A stretch of 63,005 nt of DNA, the filler included, from Bdellovibrionales bacterium RIFOXYD12_FULL_39_22 (GTDB lineage: Bacteria; Bdellovibrionota; Bacteriovoracia; Bacteriovoracales; Bacteriovoracaceae): NCBI GenBank assembly GCA_001770205.1. It is 8 parts of 8 records of this genome, joined end to end, with 100 filler letters (N's around TTAATTAATTAA, not from the genome) between each part and the next. Parts side by side here need not be neighbours in the genome. Positions count along the whole stretch, not along the records: positions 51,156 to 57,072 come from MEQL01000024.1; 7 more parts are not named here. One strand, written 5' to 3'. A model generated the notes under the pieces. The model was not told the DNA's origin and ran no database searches. It was given only the letters and a program-made list of their open reading frames with translations. The translations under genes and the position numbers were made by a program. Within the stretch, counting starts at the first letter, position 1; the number at the start of each line of letters is the position of its first letter. This document shows, in pieces, positions 51,056-57,072 of this stretch.

Positions 51056-51205
51056 NNNNNNNNNNNNNNNNNNNNNNNNNNNNNNNNNNNNNNNNNNNNT
51101 TAATTAATTAANNNNNNNNNNNNNNNNNNNNNNNNNNNNNNNNNNNNNNNNNNNNAAGGTTACCTAGTGGCTAAAGAAGAATTTGGCGGAAATTAAAAAA
51201 AATCA

Positions 51206-51667
51206 CTAAATAAATGTGGGTTTAGATAAGGTTCCAATTCCTCTATATAAATAAACCACTCCATTTTGCAGCTCAGGTTGGTTTTTTTCGTTAATAAATT
51301 GATAACTACCATGCTGAATAAAAATATTCTTATCCTCATGTTCGTAAATAGCAACTGGCGCAGCCACTTTTGTCTGAAAGATTTGGCCATTTTCTCGGTA
51401 CACACAACTACTCACTCCCATTCGACAATTATTCCAAAAGGCAAAAAGTGGCCCAATGGTGAGATCTCTAAAATTATATCCAAAATACCTATGCTCTCTT
51501 TTGTTAATTTTCTCGTTAAAAATATCCGGAATAATCCAAGTATACTGGAAATAATAATCTCGATCCGGTGGTGATTCTGGAGTATATGCAAGAGAGCCAT
51601 GGGCCGCCAACCATGGCACAATCGTTGTTTCGGTGATTAGCGTTGAAGTGGAAAATTTTTTATTCAC
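51206..51667 (-). CDS. Hypothetical protein, possibly truncated
   Basis: 153-aa ORF; VYLYRGI motif near the end. Confidence 0.5.
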   Translation of the reverse strand: MNKKFSTSTLITETTIVPWLAAHGSLAYTPESPPDRDYYFQYTWIIPDIFNEKINKREHRYFGYNFRDLTIGPLFAFWNNCRMGVSSCVYRENGQIFQTKVAAPVAIYEHEDKNIFIQHGSYQFINEKNQPELQNGVVYLYRGIGTLSKPTFI

Positions 51668-51681
51668 AATTGATTAATAAT

Positions 51682-52050
51682 CTATGCCGCTTTTAAGTCA
51701 ATTAGAATTTCACTATAATCAACAGTAGGTGTCTTAACTTCACGGCCATCAACCACCTTTCGTTTCACAGATATTGCTCCGGCCTCTTCCAAAAATATGA
51801 TAATCTTATTTAAGTTAGATAGATCCATTCCCATCAACTGGGCAAGTTCGTATACAGAATTTGGTTTATACGCAATGATCGCTGATAATATGAAAATATT
51901 TCTAGCAAACTTTTCGAAACGTTCTCTACTATCAAATGATATTTCATAGTGTGGTTCTTTGATTTTCTTTGCTTTAGCCTTTTTTAAAGCTTTTTTAAAA
52001 TCATCCATTACCTCGGAAGAATTTTTAAGTGACACAACTAATTTCTTCAT
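51682..52050 (-). CDS. Putative antitoxin, wHTH (HVO_A0114/TumA-like)
   Basis: PNSVYELAQLMGMDLSNL..L..AG; coupled to the DUF6516-like gene. Confidence 0.7.
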   Translation of the reverse strand: MKKLVVSLKNSSEVMDDFKKALKKAKAKKIKEPHYEISFDSRERFEKFARNIFILSAIIAYKPNSVYELAQLMGMDLSNLNKIIIFLEEAGAISVKRKVVDGREVKTPTVDYSEILIDLKAA

Positions 52051-52337
52051 AACTTTACCCCCAAATTATCTAGAACCAATTTTTTAAAATCATCAATCAA
52101 TTTGTCTGTCGTATTAAAATCATATGACATTTCGTTATCGTCAATATGAACGTGATGCCCCTTGGGACTGTGATTATCTATTAATATTTTCTTCATCGTT
52201 TTTTTATCTACACAAATAAGGCTATACTTGATTCCGCCAGGATAGCTACGAGAAACACCAACATCATAGATGATTATCTCAGTAATAAAGCGTCCTTGAA
52301 TTTCTGCTTTTTGTCGATATATTAACTTTGCCTTCAT
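52047..52337 (-). CDS. DUF6516/TumE-like putative toxin
   Basis: YPGGIKYSL, DNHSPKGHHVH, LIDDF. Confidence 0.75.
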   Translation of the reverse strand: MKAKLIYRQKAEIQGRFITEIIIYDVGVSRSYPGGIKYSLICVDKKTMKKILIDNHSPKGHHVHIDDNEMSYDFNTTDKLIDDFKKLVLDNLGVKL

Positions 52338-52799
52338 GCTGGTTGAATTATACCAGTATTGTATAGAAAATACCAGCTTTAATAATTTATACCGTGGCAA
52401 AATATTGGAAAGGAATGCGAACAGGAATTAAAATGCTGCTAACAACACCCATCAATTATTTATCACGGTATCCTTGAGTTTGTCGGAATAACCGACAAAC
52501 TGCTACAAAAAACAATCTCAATCTCTGGTGGGATTAAGCAACATAGAGCATTTATAAAATTGTTATATGTCACCAGATTAGTAAAGATCGTCCTATAAAA
52601 AATTTATCTGTGCAGGAGGAGACATTTATATCGAAAAATGTCCATTCCCGCCGAGGAATGAAATCTTCGCTAGTCGCTACATAGTTTTCAAAAATGAAAA
52701 AAACCTTTTACTTTGAGAAAATTAATTGAAACTCTGGGTCAAACTGTTCTACTTATCAATCGTTCGATTAGTACCTCCTAATCGGTTTGCATGTGTACC

Positions 52800-52826
52800 A
52801 ATTCTGCAGACACTGTCTGTCAAATT
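52800..52826. repeat. Free-standing imperfect 27-bp palindrome of the YhcG type
   Basis: AATTCTGCAGA-CACTG-TCTGTCAAATT. Confidence 0.55.
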
Positions 52827-53036
52827 CAACCAGTGTTCTTATTTAAGAACACCAAGAACACATTTATTCTAGAATTGGAACACCCTCAAAAATCTCTCAC
52901 TTAATAAATTTAATAAGATGGCCATTTTGGAGAGCAAAACAGATTGGCAACGCAATTGCTTTAGTGGATGCCGTGAAGATGGAATTTTTTATCAAGCAGA
53001 GGCTACTTTATCGGTAACTGCATATGGGAGGTTAAT

Positions 53037-53858
53037 ATGAAAGCGCATGATGATTTATTGGATAAAACATCTGCTAATGAGTTTTTACGGGAGTGTCTTA
53101 AGCAATTGAAGGAAGATGCCGGTGGCGTTACCACTATCCATCTTTCCAGAAAACTTGGAATACCCAATTCTACTCTCGGTAGAATCGAAAATCGCGAAGT
53201 TGAAACACCCGATTTTAACAACGCACTGAAGATTGTTCGGGCCAAATGCAAGGAGGACGCGGTAATTAAATTTATCAATAAGTTCTATCCGCAGATGGCA
53301 ACAACATTCAAAGCAGTCTATGCCGGCAACTCAGAAGTCCCGTTTGTTTCAATGAATGTAGAACCATTTTTTGAGGATATCAGCACCTATGAGTTTATGC
53401 TGCTGGCCTCGACAAAAATGAAGATTACGGAAGAGATGATTTTCAATAACTACGGCAAGCGTGGATTGGCCAAAGTTCATGAGCTTTTAGAACAAGGTGT
53501 ACTAAAAAAGCGCGGCGATGCCATTCTTCTTGCAAGCAGCAACATCAATGCTGGCCAAGAAGTGGTTCACCGCCTATTTCAAAATTTAATAACACACAAC
53601 TACGATGTGACCGCATTTGGCGATAAAGAAAACTGGCTTTCGCTACAATACGAATCAGTCGACAAGGAAGTAGTTATGCCAGCAATGTTGAAAGTTTTGA
53701 GAGAGGCAAATCAAAAAATCCGTGAGATTTTGCAAGCGCCCTCATCGAGAGGGAATGATGTTGTGTGGGCAGGACTTTCAGCCGATACCATCGACAAACT
53801 TGACCCAATTTACAGACAAGAAAAACAAATATCAATGGCCGTAGGAGGTGCACAATGA
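53037..53858 (+). CDS. HTH regulator, Bdellovibrionota TIGR02147/DUF4423-like architecture
   Basis: LSRKLGIPNSTLGRIEN HTH, central wHTH-like segment, C-terminal alpha/beta domain; GGAGG RBS. Confidence 0.7.
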   Translation: MKAHDDLLDKTSANEFLRECLKQLKEDAGGVTTIHLSRKLGIPNSTLGRIENREVETPDFNNALKIVRAKCKEDAVIKFINKFYPQMATTFKAVYAGNSEVPFVSMNVEPFFEDISTYEFMLLASTKMKITEEMIFNNYGKRGLAKVHELLEQGVLKKRGDAILLASSNINAGQEVVHRLFQNLITHNYDVTAFGDKENWLSLQYESVDKEVVMPAMLKVLREANQKIREILQAPSSRGNDVVWAGLSADTIDKLDPIYRQEKQISMAVGGAQ

Positions 53859-54199
53859 AATTAGTAAATACTGTAGCAACAACTTTAATATTCACATTAG
53901 CATTCAGCACGGTGAGTACAGCAAGTACTGTTAGAGATCAATATTTGGCAATGGATGTAGATAACGTCGTTGACCTAAAGACCGTTGACGGGAATGTGGT
54001 TACCATCGATGAATTACGCGATGGATATTCACAGGTATCAGAAACGAAAGTAGTTGGTCGAAAATTACTTACCAAGCGAAGCGCACCAATTGTTGATATG
54101 CAACTATTTAACGGACAGATTATTGACTTCCAAACTGCTCGAACAATGATGATGGGCGGAGATATGGGAGGCGGCGGTAAAGGTGGCGCAAAGCTCTAG
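53855..54199 (+). CDS. Small secreted protein with Gly-rich C-terminal tail
   Basis: AGGAGG RBS, ATGA overlap, signal peptide, ends MMMGGDMGGGGKGGAKL. Confidence 0.8.
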   Translation: MKLVNTVATTLIFTLAFSTVSTASTVRDQYLAMDVDNVVDLKTVDGNVVTIDELRDGYSQVSETKVVGRKLLTKRSAPIVDMQLFNGQIIDFQTARTMMMGGDMGGGGKGGAKL

Positions 54200-54230
54200 C
54201 TTTTGAGTGAATGTGATTTTGATGTTTTGA

Positions 54231-54285
54231 AAAAGAATGGTCGCGCCGGACCACTAAACAGGCCTAGCGGCGCGGTTCGTTTTTT
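54231..54285 (+). terminator. Rho-independent terminator-like hairpin
   Basis: CGCGCCG/CGGCGCG stem, long loop, T-run. Confidence 0.55.
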
Positions 54286-54419
54286 ATTTAAATATTAAGT
54301 ACATGCGTAGGCATGAAAAAAATTCTTAATCACTCAATAAAATTGTGTATAACTCAGAGATAATATATAGTTCGCAACCAAAATAACGTTGTGTGCAAAA
54401 CCATGATAAGGAGAACAAA

Positions 54420-54698
54420 ATGGGGAACAGTAATAATCTTAGAAAAATTCTTGTATCTGTTTTACTAATGGCAGGTGTTTATTCAACAAATGTTGCCGCC
54501 AACTCATATGTTGAGCAATTAAGTTCTGATGAAATTATTCAAGTGCTCAACGATCTAAAAGCTAGTGGCGTAGATTTCAATATAATTATTTCGACGCAAG
54601 ATGGAGAAAAGTTGGAATACCGCGGAATTGATCCAGCGATATTCCAAAAAATGACAGATAAAAAAATGGGAACACCTGGCGCCTTCGGTTCCAAGTAG
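54420..54698 (+). CDS. 92-aa secreted protein, candidate peptide precursor
   Basis: AAGGAG RBS; signal peptide; ends KKMGTPGAFGSK; 17 nt before the radical SAM gene. Confidence 0.75.
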   Translation: MGNSNNLRKILVSVLLMAGVYSTNVAANSYVEQLSSDEIIQVLNDLKASGVDFNIIISTQDGEKLEYRGIDPAIFQKMTDKKMGTPGAFGSK

Positions 54699-54715
54699 CG
54701 ATAGCGGAACTATTA

Positions 54716-55570
54716 ATGAAATTTGGAATAATGCTTGGGTTTGCCTGCAATGCTCATTGCGAGCATTGCACGACAAGCAGCGGGCCAGGTAACAAGACAC
54801 ATCTAACTGACTTTGAAAAAAGCAAGATTGCATCTTTTTTTAACGAGAATGCAAAACAGATACACAAGGTAGTCTTCTCCGGCGGAGAACCATTTCTATA
54901 CATAGACGATATAAATCAGATCTTAACTTCTTTCACGTCCATCAGCAGTGATTTTCAAGTGGAAGTTATCACTAACGCAATCTTTGCATCATCAGCAGAA
55001 AAATGCGCGAAAGAATTTTCCAGACTAAAGATGGTCAACTCCGTTATAATCTCATATGATGAATTTCACTCGCCGTTTTGCTCCCAACAAAATATTCTAA
55101 CTCTTGTAAAATACTGCAAGGAAAATAACATCAACGTCTGTGCAAGCGTCACCAAGGGATCGTATAAGGCAATCGAATATGTTAAACTTTTTTCTGATCT
55201 AAATGTTGAGAGCCAAGTTACCGATTTCAAATATACAGGAAGAGGAGCTCTGTTAACAAAAAAATATTTCAACGATGCCATACAACCGAACTCTGATATT
55301 TTAGATTCAAAATGTCCGCTAATCAACACCGTAAATTATTTCCCTGGTAAAGGATTTAGTTTTTGCTGCGGGCATCTAATGTTCAACATGGAATACAACT
55401 CCCCCATTAAACGATTTGCTTTTGACTCCTATGCAGACATGATCAGTAGCCATCTCTATCAAGAACTAAAAAATCATAATTTTTCCGAAATACTAGCAAA
55501 AATAAAATGCCCAACCACATATACTAGCGTCTGTGACATTTGCCAGCATTTCTACGAGGAGACTATGTGA
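54716..55570 (+). CDS. Radical SAM enzyme, YydG/EpeE peptide-epimerase-like
   Basis: CNAHCEHC..SSGP, FSGGEPFL, ISYDEFHSPF, CP..FCCG, SVCDIC. Confidence 0.85.
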   Translation: MKFGIMLGFACNAHCEHCTTSSGPGNKTHLTDFEKSKIASFFNENAKQIHKVVFSGGEPFLYIDDINQILTSFTSISSDFQVEVITNAIFASSAEKCAKEFSRLKMVNSVIISYDEFHSPFCSQQNILTLVKYCKENNINVCASVTKGSYKAIEYVKLFSDLNVESQVTDFKYTGRGALLTKKYFNDAIQPNSDILDSKCPLINTVNYFPGKGFSFCCGHLMFNMEYNSPIKRFAFDSYADMISSHLYQELKNHNFSEILAKIKCPTTYTSVCDICQHFYEETM

Positions 55571-56376
55571 AGACAAATGTTGAGTCTGCATCACAAATAT
55601 CGCTACAAGACGGAAAAATCTATTTTGACAACAGCGCAATTAATTCTTTTAAACGCAACTCCATCATCAAACACAAGCACAATCACTATTTCATATTGGA
55701 CAAATCAAGCAATATCAATATCACCTCGCAAATAGAGCTGGTTTTTCAGGAATTACAAATAGACAGGCTCATAATCTCAGCTCCCGATGTTCAATTAGTT
55801 GGAGAGGCGATTAAAGATTATTTTTATGATCACGGCATTTGGTATGTTCAATACAACGGAGAATTTAATTTCAAAAGGCAGGAATTAATTAATATCCCGC
55901 AAGATATAGTTACAATTGAAGAATATCCGAACGGAATTAACGAGCAACAGACAATTGAATATTTAAAGCAACAGTGGAACAAAGACCATTTTACCCCTTA
56001 TATAGTGCCTTGCTCTTCATATGTGGCCAAACAACACTGGGCCCTTTTCGAAAATTTGTTAAAGGATGGACGACATATTTTGTTTCGCCAATCAAATAAC
56101 ATTGTAGGCCACTTGGCATTAATTCCAATGGACGATCCATTTCTCCTTGCCCCCGTTATTGCCATCCATATATGGATAAACTCAGGCTGTCCTGATGATA
56201 TGAGAAAGATGATTCATAAAACCCTTCTTACTAGCGCTGAACAGTGTATTGGCCAATCGTCCGTCGCTTTGCACGCTTCGATTTTTTTGAAAAACTACAG
56301 ATCTTTCAAGTATTTTGTAAAAAACAATTTTAAACCGACATTTTTGTGCATAAAAAAATTTAACAAGGCCCAATGA
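55567..56376 (+). CDS. Hypothetical protein with possible C-terminal GNAT-like fold
   Basis: GTGA coupling with the rSAM gene; IVGHL, HIWI, ASI..KNYRSFKYFVKNNF. Confidence 0.6.
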   Translation: MKTNVESASQISLQDGKIYFDNSAINSFKRNSIIKHKHNHYFILDKSSNINITSQIELVFQELQIDRLIISAPDVQLVGEAIKDYFYDHGIWYVQYNGEFNFKRQELINIPQDIVTIEEYPNGINEQQTIEYLKQQWNKDHFTPYIVPCSSYVAKQHWALFENLLKDGRHILFRQSNNIVGHLALIPMDDPFLLAPVIAIHIWINSGCPDDMRKMIHKTLLTSAEQCIGQSSVALHASIFLKNYRSFKYFVKNNFKPTFLCIKKFNKAQ

Positions 56377-57010
56377 TGAAACTTAAAAGGTTATTAACTT
56401 CAATCTGCGCTGCCTGTATATTTTCTAATTTCAGTTTTTCTGCCGAACAAGTTTACAGCGTTGTATTGGTTGATATTCCTAAGTCAGTGCATCCAAAAGA
56501 TGGGATGATAAATCACATTTCTTTTATCCTCAAGCAATTACATGAACCTCTTTTTACCTACGATAGCAGCGGTTATAGATCGAATGTTTTATCTAGCTGG
56601 CAAACAAATGAAGCTCGCACCGAATACACCATGTGCCTGAAGAAAGGCCTGCAATATTCTGATCGAACCGTGGCCACGCCCGATGATCTTTATCAAGACC
56701 TGAAATATTTTAGTAAAATGAATTATTTTACCAGTATACTGACTAACATCTCACCCCCCAAGCAAAGATGGCTGCGTAAAATTGCAATTTAAGGACCCAT
56801 ACAACACACTTGTGCGAGATCTACAATACTACACCACTCCACTTCTTCGGCCATCTACAATTACCTCTGACTCGCCGACCGGAGTATCGCCATATCGAAT
56901 TTTAACTATTACGGGAGACACCATCGAGCTTCAACTTGATAGGTCAATGTGTCCTTCATGTAAGTATGACAAGATCAAATTCTATCGTTATGACAAGAAA
57001 CTCAAGCTAG
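56373..57010 (+). pseudogene. ABC peptide substrate-binding protein (family 5), frameshifted and IS-truncated
   Basis: QLHEPLF.Y, L.SW, LKKGLQYSD..T..D, PTGVSPYRI; extra C in the C6 run 56754-56759; IS end at 57007. Confidence 0.75.
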
Positions 57011-57072
57011 TACTGCGACAATTTAATTTTTGCCGGTTTTTACCCTACTTTTTTTGGGCTTAATTCGTTTTA
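57007..57072. mobile_element. Other end of the unidentified CTAG-targeting IS
   Basis: Inverted match to 20542-20578. Confidence 0.65.

Follow-up and report, generated by a model that had tools for sequence, protein, structure and literature searches.

The window analysed here is a stretch of 63,005 nucleotides (nt) from the genome of Bdellovibrionales bacterium RIFOXYD12_FULL_39_22 (assembly GCA_001770205.1; 3.95 Mb in 62 contigs, 39% G+C), a member of the phylum Bdellovibrionota that belongs to the same GTDB family as Halobacteriovorax marinus. The window consists of eight small contigs joined by runs of N, one of which (C24, 5,917 nt, window positions 51156–57072) carries a cassette of four linked genes. 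These genes encode a small signal-bearing protein of 92 amino acids (aa), a radical S-adenosylmethionine (SAM) enzyme related to the peptide epimerase EpeE (YydG), a protein with a predicted tandem GNAT fold and a family-5 solute-binding protein, the gene for which is broken (Table 1). A reading made from the sequence alone had picked out these genes as four tightly linked members of an operon below a terminator-like hairpin, and the open reading frames (ORFs), their junctions and the predicted RNA fold bear this out. The cassette is interpreted here, somewhat more probably than otherwise, as the producing part of a conserved system of peptide maturation and peptide sensing, in which an epimerised peptide would be exported through Sec and, in relatives, sensed.

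The hairpin upstream of the cassette has a G+C-rich inner stem of 7 bp and a folding energy of −20.6 kcal/mol (z −1.96; 9 of 200 shuffled sequences are as stable); it was overlooked by a simple terminator scan because its loop is long. Counts from the sigma-70 and terminator scans equal the expectation from shuffled sequences, no sigma-54 pattern was matched within positions 54290–54420, and an Rfam search of the contig yielded only a chance-level match to a hairpin ribozyme (E 0.69) and no riboswitch. The third gene would encode a product of 278 aa if the TTG at 55540 were used as the start instead of the GTG.

Table 1. Features of the cassette contig, of the rest of the window and of related loci (window positions unless a locus is named).
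Feature	Position	Strand	Remarks
Terminator-like hairpin with U run	54241–54290	+	between the upstream gene (stop at 54199) and the cassette
Precursor gene, 92 aa	54420–54698	+	ATG at 54420; AAGGAG 7 nt upstream
Candidate core, residues 51–62 of the precursor	54570–54605	+	hydrophobic run, then polar residues and Gly; putative
Radical SAM gene, 284 aa	54716–55570	+	EpeE/YydG-like; starts after 17-nt gap
Tandem-GNAT-fold gene, 269 aa	55567–56376	+	GTG start; GTGA overlap; GAGGAG 5 nt upstream
Family-5 solute-binding protein gene, broken	56373–57006	+	ATG start; ATGA overlap; signal peptide
Repeat end	57007–57072		insertion-element-like, multicopy; cuts the cassette and ends the contig
RF03165 site	L055:9645–9715		
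RF03165 site	L057:2209–2279		
RF03165 site	L059:5636–5706		
RF03165 site	L061:5538–5608		
RF03165 site	L063:5637–5706		
Beta-lactamase-fold protein gene	L045:5665–7068	−	in the slot of the GNAT-like gene
Fused radical SAM-GNAT paralogue	L052:6305–7759	−	genome G226
Second cassette of the host	L121:1021–7929	−	contig C3, outside the window
Sigma-54-like match	52945–52960		one mismatch; 77 nt before the helix-turn-helix gene
Helix-turn-helix and Gly-rich-tail genes	53037–54199	+	273 and 114 aa; 4-nt overlap
Two small genes	51682–52400	−	117 and 122 aa; 4-nt overlap
Predicted lipoprotein gene, 1131 aa	46780–50175	+	contig C22
M23 peptidase protein gene, 391 aa	57523–58698	−	contig C26

A radical SAM enzyme close to EpeE

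The sequence motifs that suggested an EpeE/YydG-like identity are all present in the radical SAM protein (CNAHCEHC..SSGP, GGEPFL, ISYDEFHSPF, CP at residues 200–201, CC at 217–218 and a terminal SVCDIC), and database comparisons corroborate the assignment. In Pfam, the protein matches Radical_SAM (36.7 bits, cut-off 29.5) and Fer4_12 alone, and the best of its 37 NCBIfam matches is TIGR04078, the YydG family of peptide epimerases (77.7 bits, E 1e-21, residues 5–282 of 284). By sequence, EpeE (8ai1) is the closest of all solved structures (phmmer E 1.2e-14, residues 5–278), with the next family at E 0.013. An AlphaFold 2 model built on an alignment of 37 relatives has a predicted local distance difference test (pLDDT) score of 91.5, and the top nine Foldseek matches of this model are all EpeE chains (template modelling (TM) scores 0.68–0.74, E about 1e-14; the best match has TM 0.72 and E 2.4e-14), spanning 303–308 alignment columns; the next enzyme in the list is BlsE, at E 1.1e-8. 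Thus, the protein does not cluster with enzymes that act on substrates other than peptides: its nearest relative of solved structure, by both sequence and fold, is EpeE.

An exhaustive homologue search detected 1110 relatives at E≤1e-3, of which 11 reached E≤1e-30, with the best match other than the protein itself being 33% identical; a word-indexed search returned only the protein itself and one relative with 31% identity. Among the 136 relatives of 260 aa or more over which residue conservation was counted, the three cysteines of the CX3CX2C motif (C11, C15 and C18) and G56-G57-E58 are retained in 132–136, and C200, C217, C273 and C276, which align with cysteines of the EpeE chain 8ai1_A, are retained in 134–135. 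These four cysteines provide for a predicted single auxiliary [4Fe-4S] site in a shortened SPASM ('T-SPASM') domain, the architecture given for EpeE in one description of that enzyme (PMC13012085). The SYDxFH motif is almost invariant in the same set of relatives. The second cysteine of the CC pair, C218, is retained in 123 of the 136 and aligns with the second cysteine of the pair in 8ai1_A, a residue that we take to be Cys223, assuming that the 344-residue chain carries a 25-residue tag. In two accounts of EpeE, Cys223 is the donor that returns hydrogen to the C-alpha radical (PMC8326336, PMC13012085). Judged by its sequence, modelled fold and aligned residues, the window enzyme resembles EpeE, yet it belongs to a sister family that no curated model represents.

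The small protein as the likely substrate

The first 27 residues of the 92-aa protein resemble a Sec signal peptide, with a basic n-region, a 12-residue hydrophobic core (hydropathy above 2 at residues 9–21) and V-A-A before the predicted cut; residues 30–48 form a conserved helix-like leader motif, and the remainder is variable. The small ORFs of the relatives align as one family with about 45 conserved N-terminal residues, which begin with basic residues and continue with a hydrophobic segment, small residues at positions −3 and −1 before a conserved Tyr-Val, and the helix-like motif; the C-terminus is variable (alignment A4). No Pfam or NCBIfam model covers the window protein or this family. 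The window protein matches the family profile at E 4.2e-20, and three loci that lay outside profile building (L037, L042 and L055) match it as well. A search of 5.8 billion proteins recovered 21 members at the threshold of E≤1e-3, with values of 1.7e-16 to 5e-8; the named database members are all 'hypothetical' except for one that carries a clearly misapplied label.

The sequence-only reading had taken this protein for the substrate of the enzyme, with the short tail after KK as its core, and had suggested that gene neighbourhoods be surveyed for a conserved small signal-bearing ORF with a conserved C-terminus. Such an ORF indeed adjoins the enzyme gene in two phyla, ending less than 30 nt before it in the related loci listed, often with translational coupling; it is conserved at the N-terminus, with the C-terminus being the variable part. 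The conservation of the small ORF beside the homologues in two phyla makes it a likely substrate, and we consider it highly probable that the enzyme acts on the adjacent small protein. The position of the core is a different matter: the tail after KK was rejected, on the alignment argument alone, in favour of residues 51–62, the hydrophobic residues of which align with hydrophobic-hydrophobic-Leu-Cys/Ala-x-Gly cores of the relatives (A4). EpeE acts on Val and Ile in one published account (PMC8326336). In three loci (L037, L040 and L042), the precursors are long and carry three repeated short core-like motifs near the C-terminus, an arrangement typical of multi-core RiPP precursors (RiPP, ribosomally synthesised and post-translationally modified peptide).

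A three-chain complex prediction with the precursor as the partner scored 0.47, compared with 0.00 for the best control, and was graded as weak support; the runs agree in at least 37% of the contacts, with a partner pLDDT of at least 62. Of 157 solved complexes, 116 reach the mark set for a complex, as do 2 of 215 mismatched pairs; at scores of 0.60 or under, only 18 of these solved complexes and both of the mismatches reached it. The prediction used custom alignments, and because solved complexes of EpeE with peptides exist, a pass may reflect the memory of the predictor.

If the small ORF encoded an unrelated secreted protein, the enzyme and the GNAT-like protein would act on some other protein or on a small molecule for which the binding protein serves in uptake or sensing. 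EpeE is reported to be leader-independent (PMC8326336), and in L055, the precursor-family gene lies 3 kb away from the enzyme gene, both of which would be compatible with that arrangement. We nevertheless regard it as very improbable, given the adjacency and frequent coupling of the two genes in two phyla, the repeated core motifs in some relatives, the excess of the complex score over the controls, weak as this support is, and the fact that the nearest characterised enzyme acts on peptides.

A conserved cassette in two phyla

When 401 genomes of the phylum were searched with a profile, the enzyme family was detected in 30 of them, and 16 of these loci were fetched; a scan of one genome per species with a 10-row alignment added loci from Elusimicrobiota, a metagenome-assembled genome (MAG) labelled 'Deltaproteobacteria', a Bdellovibrionales MAG, Bacillota and archaea. 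Profile searches were run over 34 loci, of which 33 are distinct (L065 is the same DNA as L037, from genome G381, with identical profile scores). In Bdellovibrionota and Elusimicrobiota, the recurring gene order is the small ORF, the enzyme, a protein of about 205–245 aa, a binding protein of about 460–485 aa and a membrane histidine kinase. The cassette binding protein is encoded directly downstream in 24 of the 33 distinct loci, and this sharing of the gene order puts the linkage beyond chance. The nine loci that lack it comprise six from Bacillota or archaea, which have no cassette partner at all, the degenerate paralogue L052, L055, where other genes take its place, and L057, the contig of which stops within the enzyme gene.

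A kinase gene follows the binding-protein gene in all 19 assessable loci, the other five breaking off at the binding-protein gene or no more than 300 nt from it; the cassette kinases contain the HATPase_c and HisKA domains of Pfam. The binding proteins form a divergent family: that of L045 matches SBP_bac_5 (PF00496) at 36.4 bits (cut-off 32.4), and that of L037 has no match at E 1e-3. Profiles for the binding protein and the kinase that were built from Bdellovibrionota only match the Elusimicrobiota cassettes at E 1e-84 to 1e-128, which indicates that both families are dedicated partners and do not adjoin the enzyme by chance. A tree was built from 31 enzymes, leaving out the duplicate L065, the degenerate L052 and the truncated L057 and L049; it splits the 24 cassette enzymes from six cassette-less ones of Bacillota and archaea with support of 96/94, and the window enzyme forms a long branch beside L045.

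In 5 of 10 Elusimicrobiota-type loci, a 2'-deoxyguanosine-II riboswitch (RF03165; 73–85 bits, gathering score 60) lies 80–150 nt upstream of the precursor gene (Table 1); this element was not found on the window contig or in three Bdellovibrionota loci searched.

The sequence-only reading had remarked that the partners of the enzyme are not the protease and exporter of the EpeE operon of Bacillus subtilis, and this extends to the relatives. No gene for a membrane protease or ATP-binding cassette (ABC) exporter (epeP, epeAB) was seen on the cassette contig, and none of the related cassettes listed includes a dedicated leader protease, ABC exporter or immunity transporter; these slots are held by the GNAT-like protein, the binding protein and the kinase. 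In place of a protease and an exporter, the small-ORF family retains a Sec-type signal that has small residues at −3 and −1.

This composition bears on the possibility that the product is mainly a weapon, namely a membrane-active toxin that could act on the envelopes of prey, with the binding protein and the kinase serving autoinduction or self-protection. The host comes from a predatory lineage, the cores are hydrophobic, the producer genes are intact here while the sensor half is lost, and EPE, the product of the Bacillus system, is described as a membrane-perturbing cannibalism toxin (PMC7026026, PMC12871923). Nevertheless, a toxin of this kind seems unlikely to be the main product: the related cassettes listed have no immunity transporter or protease comparable to those of epeXEPAB, and the tight, invariant coupling to a dedicated pair of binding protein and kinase in two phyla fits a ligand and its receptor better.

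The GNAT-like partner

The product of the third gene has no match in Pfam or NCBIfam. Its alignable counterparts are the products of the middle genes in related cassettes and, in fused forms about 490 aa long, the C-terminal 200 residues; among the 150 nearest relatives of the enzyme, 31 are such radical SAM-GNAT fusions of 450 aa or more, and fusion of the two proteins in relatives implies a functional link between them. The GNAT-like nature of the protein, proposed in the sequence-only reading, receives support from several sides. Weak GNAT matches in Pfam occur in 3 of 16 members of the third-protein family (best E 4.5e-5). Foldseek matches of its AlphaFold 2 model (pLDDT 70.6) include the tandem GNATs VipF and PamZ and the aminoacyl-phosphatidylglycerol synthase domain of MprF (E 1.7e-8 to 1e-5, TM 0.3–0.45), and in the ESM Atlas, the protein falls among GNAT clusters (TM 0.54–0.61). 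Taken at the level of the modelled fold, the protein may perform either acyl or aminoacyl transfer or substrate holding alone.

The slot of this gene varies among the relatives. In L045, a beta-lactamase-fold protein (PF00144, E 2.5e-36) replaces the GNAT-like protein between the enzyme and the binding protein, and ORFs judged by eye to be similar occupy the GNAT slot in L059 and L063. The beta-lactamase fold includes D-stereospecific peptidases, so that such a protein would fit a product with D-residues. In L044, a canonical GNAT is encoded after the binding protein. The fused radical SAM-GNAT paralogue of L052 has other residues at all three cysteine positions of the CX3CX2C motif and is possibly a pseudo-enzyme; this locus is rearranged, with the binding-protein and kinase genes on the other strand.

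A broken, presumed sensor half

The fourth gene had been recognised as coding for a family-5 binding protein, and it is probably a divergent member of that family; the profile of the cassette binding proteins matches the window gene at E 2.8e-25 and 7.2e-7. The gene is broken in two ways. It comprises two ORFs (56373–56792 and 56782–57063), with a +1 frame change at a run of six C (56754–56759); tblastn with the binding proteins of relatives matches it in two frames, and a three-frame view agrees. Furthermore, it is cut short by the repeat at the end of the contig, so that about 210 of roughly 460–485 codons are left. The 66 nt of this repeat end are identical at the ends of contigs C60 and C31, with partial copies in C17, C59 and C9. 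Logan contigs from runs X1, X5 and X8 show 0 differences and 0 gaps over 54400–57033; this agreement excludes an assembler artefact, not a shared sequencing error, and the runs may be the source of the assembly and hence not independent, which tells against relying on it.

At the repeat, the depth of the Logan contigs leaps from 8–15 to 148–229, and a Logan contig of 1356 nt matches the repeat with both of its ends, in opposite orientation, the inverted ends being about 30 nt long. The repeat element of about 1356 nt has a depth roughly 6-fold or more that of the neighbouring contig, and it is probably the cause of many contig breaks in the assembly. The first 77 nt of the cassette contig are likewise repeated, in C29 and C40.

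No remainder of the sensor half was found elsewhere in the assembly by tblastn with the cassette binding proteins and kinases, an absence that is not proof because the assembly is 94.6% complete and is broken at the repeat. The only cassette-type kinase in the assembly is that of contig C3, which shares 38% identity with the cassette kinase of L038 over 478 residues, the others being generic kinases. As read from the sequence, then, the producer genes are intact in this genome, and the sensor half is broken or lost. With a broken binding-protein gene and no cognate kinase found, re-sensing of the peptide probably fails here, and we deem a non-functional sensing arm in this genome quite likely. 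The sequence-only reading, which had suggested a peptide that is exported and re-sensed, gains ground for the relatives insofar as a sensor kinase follows the binding protein in every assessable locus; for the present genome it probably does not hold.

The kinase on contig C3 is part of a second cassette of this host, outside the window. That cassette comprises genes for an XRE-type helix-turn-helix (HTH) protein, two signal-bearing products (a protein with a Gly-rich tail and a small ORF of 102 aa), a binding protein of family 5 (63 bits), a 287-aa protein that matches YcaO below the threshold (19–20 bits compared with 25.7), a xylose-isomerase-like TIM barrel and a hybrid histidine kinase that shares its family with the kinases of the radical SAM cassettes. 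This composition suggests that the module of binding protein and kinase is combined with different peptide maturases.

A proposed pathway and the observations against it

The 92-aa protein would be a ribosomal precursor, in the hydrophobic core of which the EpeE/YydG-like enzyme would abstract C-alpha hydrogens in the cytoplasm; C218 would then give hydrogen back, converting L-residues to D-residues. The tandem-GNAT-fold protein would work with the enzyme, most likely as a substrate-holding or tailoring partner, and the product would be exported through Sec by its own signal peptide. In relatives, the periplasmic family-5 binding protein and the membrane hybrid histidine kinase would detect the product, making it a self-made signal, possibly one that is also a membrane-active agent. 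In the present organism, the peptide may still be made and is probably no longer sensed by its own cassette. On balance, we lean slightly towards epimerisation as the chemistry of the enzyme; that the product is detected in relatives by way of the binding protein and the kinase has about an even chance of being correct.

Several observations weigh against this interpretation. The score of the enzyme, 77.7 bits, is below the curated 300-bit cut-off of TIGR04078, so that it is not a curated YydG member; the cut-off is reached by none of its 150 nearest relatives, 5 of which score 113–142 bits, and no other curated family matches these 150 at E≤1e-28. Given this score and an identity to EpeE of 22%, the chemistry of the enzyme could differ from that of EpeE. 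The second cysteine of the CC pair is absent in 13 of the 136 relatives, and Asp210 of EpeE, for which the structure of a D210A mutant is available (8ai6), aligns with N204 here, in a variable column (D or E in 47 of 136). Many Elusimicrobiota precursors have a cysteine at a fixed place in the core, which could point to cross-linking. With regard to export, the hydrophobic segment at the N-terminus shows a degree of conservation between phyla that is unusual in a signal peptide, and in L039 and L045, it sits behind a separate signal-like segment, which implies that the conserved segment may be a leader as well as, or instead of, an export signal. The complex score, being weak, also counts on this side. 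In the third-protein family, the loop Q/R-x-x-G-x-G/A, the usual acetyl-CoA-binding motif of GNATs, is not visible by eye after the conserved strand in alignment A3, which makes acylation uncertain. Finally, the binding-protein fragment of the window, from a broken gene, scores 16.4 bits with SBP_bac_5, below the cut-off of 32.4, and the adjacency of the kinase does not show what the kinase senses.

The low family scores, the missing donor cysteines, the variable Asp210 column and the fixed core cysteine could all be accommodated if the same cassette modified the same substrate in another way, by forming a thioether or a carbon-carbon cross-link or by changing the backbone. Such a modification appears improbable to us: the core of the window precursor contains no cysteine, the single auxiliary cluster and the CC loop match those of EpeE, which is the sole close structural relative, and cross-linking maturases of the SkfB, SuiB and CteB types are far worse Foldseek matches.

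Other genes in the window

Upstream of the hairpin, two overlapping genes on the same strand encode an HTH protein with weak matches to HTH_3 and a signal-bearing protein with a Gly-rich tail, preceded by a sigma-54-like match (Table 1). Paralogues of both (70% and 52% identity) are found upstream of the cassette on contig C3. These genes were considered as members of the cassette and rejected, since no counterpart occurs within 7 kb of the cassettes of relatives and the hairpin separates them from the four genes. Just upstream of the HTH region, near the start of the contig, are two small genes on the opposite strand, the 117-aa product of which has a 45%-identical paralogue on contig C13. 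Elsewhere in the window, contig C22 encodes a large predicted lipoprotein in which an N-terminal part of immunoglobulin-like appearance is followed by about 14 tandem repeats of about 45 aa each, built around the motif W-I-V-R-K-W-(D/N)-G-S-S-W. Contig C26 encodes a protein with a C-terminal M23 peptidase domain (E 2e-16); a contig join lies between this gene and the cassette, to which it is physically unlinked.

Relation to known systems and implications

The closest known system is epeXEPAB (yydFGHIJ) of B. subtilis, the enzyme of which, EpeE (YydG), is the best match of the window enzyme by sequence, hidden Markov model and fold; the two enzymes have the radical SAM motif, a single auxiliary cluster site and the CC loop with the hydrogen-donor cysteine in common. 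In both systems, a small precursor gene with a hydrophobic core lies directly upstream of the enzyme gene. The differences are considerable: the precursor has a Sec-type signal here, whereas the Bacillus operon encodes a dedicated protease and an ABC exporter; the present cassette includes a tandem-GNAT partner (often fused to the enzyme), a family-5 solute-binding protein and a hybrid histidine kinase; and the hosts are diderm Bdellovibrionota and Elusimicrobiota rather than Bacillota, with the low identity and the unconserved Asp210 position noted above.

The presumed sensing arm would be analogous to circuits in which a kinase depends on a binding protein or peptides act as autoinducers, such as LuxP-LuxQ, TorT-TorS, nisin-NisK and Agr: a periplasmic binding protein is paired with a membrane kinase, and a self-made modified peptide is the presumed ligand. 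Unlike in those systems, the ligand would be a radical SAM-modified, Sec-exported peptide in diderms. Among other radical SAM epimerases, those of the proteusins act on precursors with long nitrile-hydratase-like leaders. In one account, the proteusin epimerases PoyD and OspD catalyse L-to-D epimerisation of ribosomal peptides with a protein cysteine as the hydrogen donor, have no significant homology to the EpeE type and possess the radical SAM cluster alone together with a C-terminal RRE domain (PMC8326336). A precedent for the Sec signal on a RiPP precursor is offered by the bufferins, which, as described in one report, are modified in the cytoplasm and then exported by their own signal peptide, a route presented there as rare among bacterial RiPPs (PMC11626156). 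The bufferins differ in their maturation by MNIO/DUF692 with DUF2063, in their thiooxazoles and copper binding, and in having no pair of binding protein and kinase.

The window cassette is a divergent, half-decayed member of what is apparently an undescribed, conserved variant of the epipeptide-type RiPP system; a full-text literature search, the coverage of which lies outside subscription journals, retrieved no description of the cassette. The value of the present genome is the more modest because it holds such a copy, one that illustrates how producer genes can persist without the sensor.

Peptide signalling is textbook knowledge in Gram-positive bacteria and rare in Gram-negative ones. To our knowledge, radical SAM epimerases are the only enzymes reported to install irreversible D-residues in ribosomal peptides, and we know of studies of the EpeE type only in toxin operons of Bacillota. 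As a tentative and rather speculative extension, diderms of at least two phyla may use a D-residue-containing, Sec-exported peptide pheromone that epimerisation renders protease-resistant and receptor-specific, made with the aid of a GNAT-like protein and read back by the binding protein and kinase, with gating by the 2'-deoxyguanosine riboswitch in some Elusimicrobiota and only the producer genes left here. If the proposed interpretation is true, it would extend the EpeE type to diderms, including predators, and to Sec-dependent export, partnership with a GNAT, for which the gene fusions are independent evidence of linkage, and a built-in receptor, which would make a D-amino-acid peptide directly testable as a signal.

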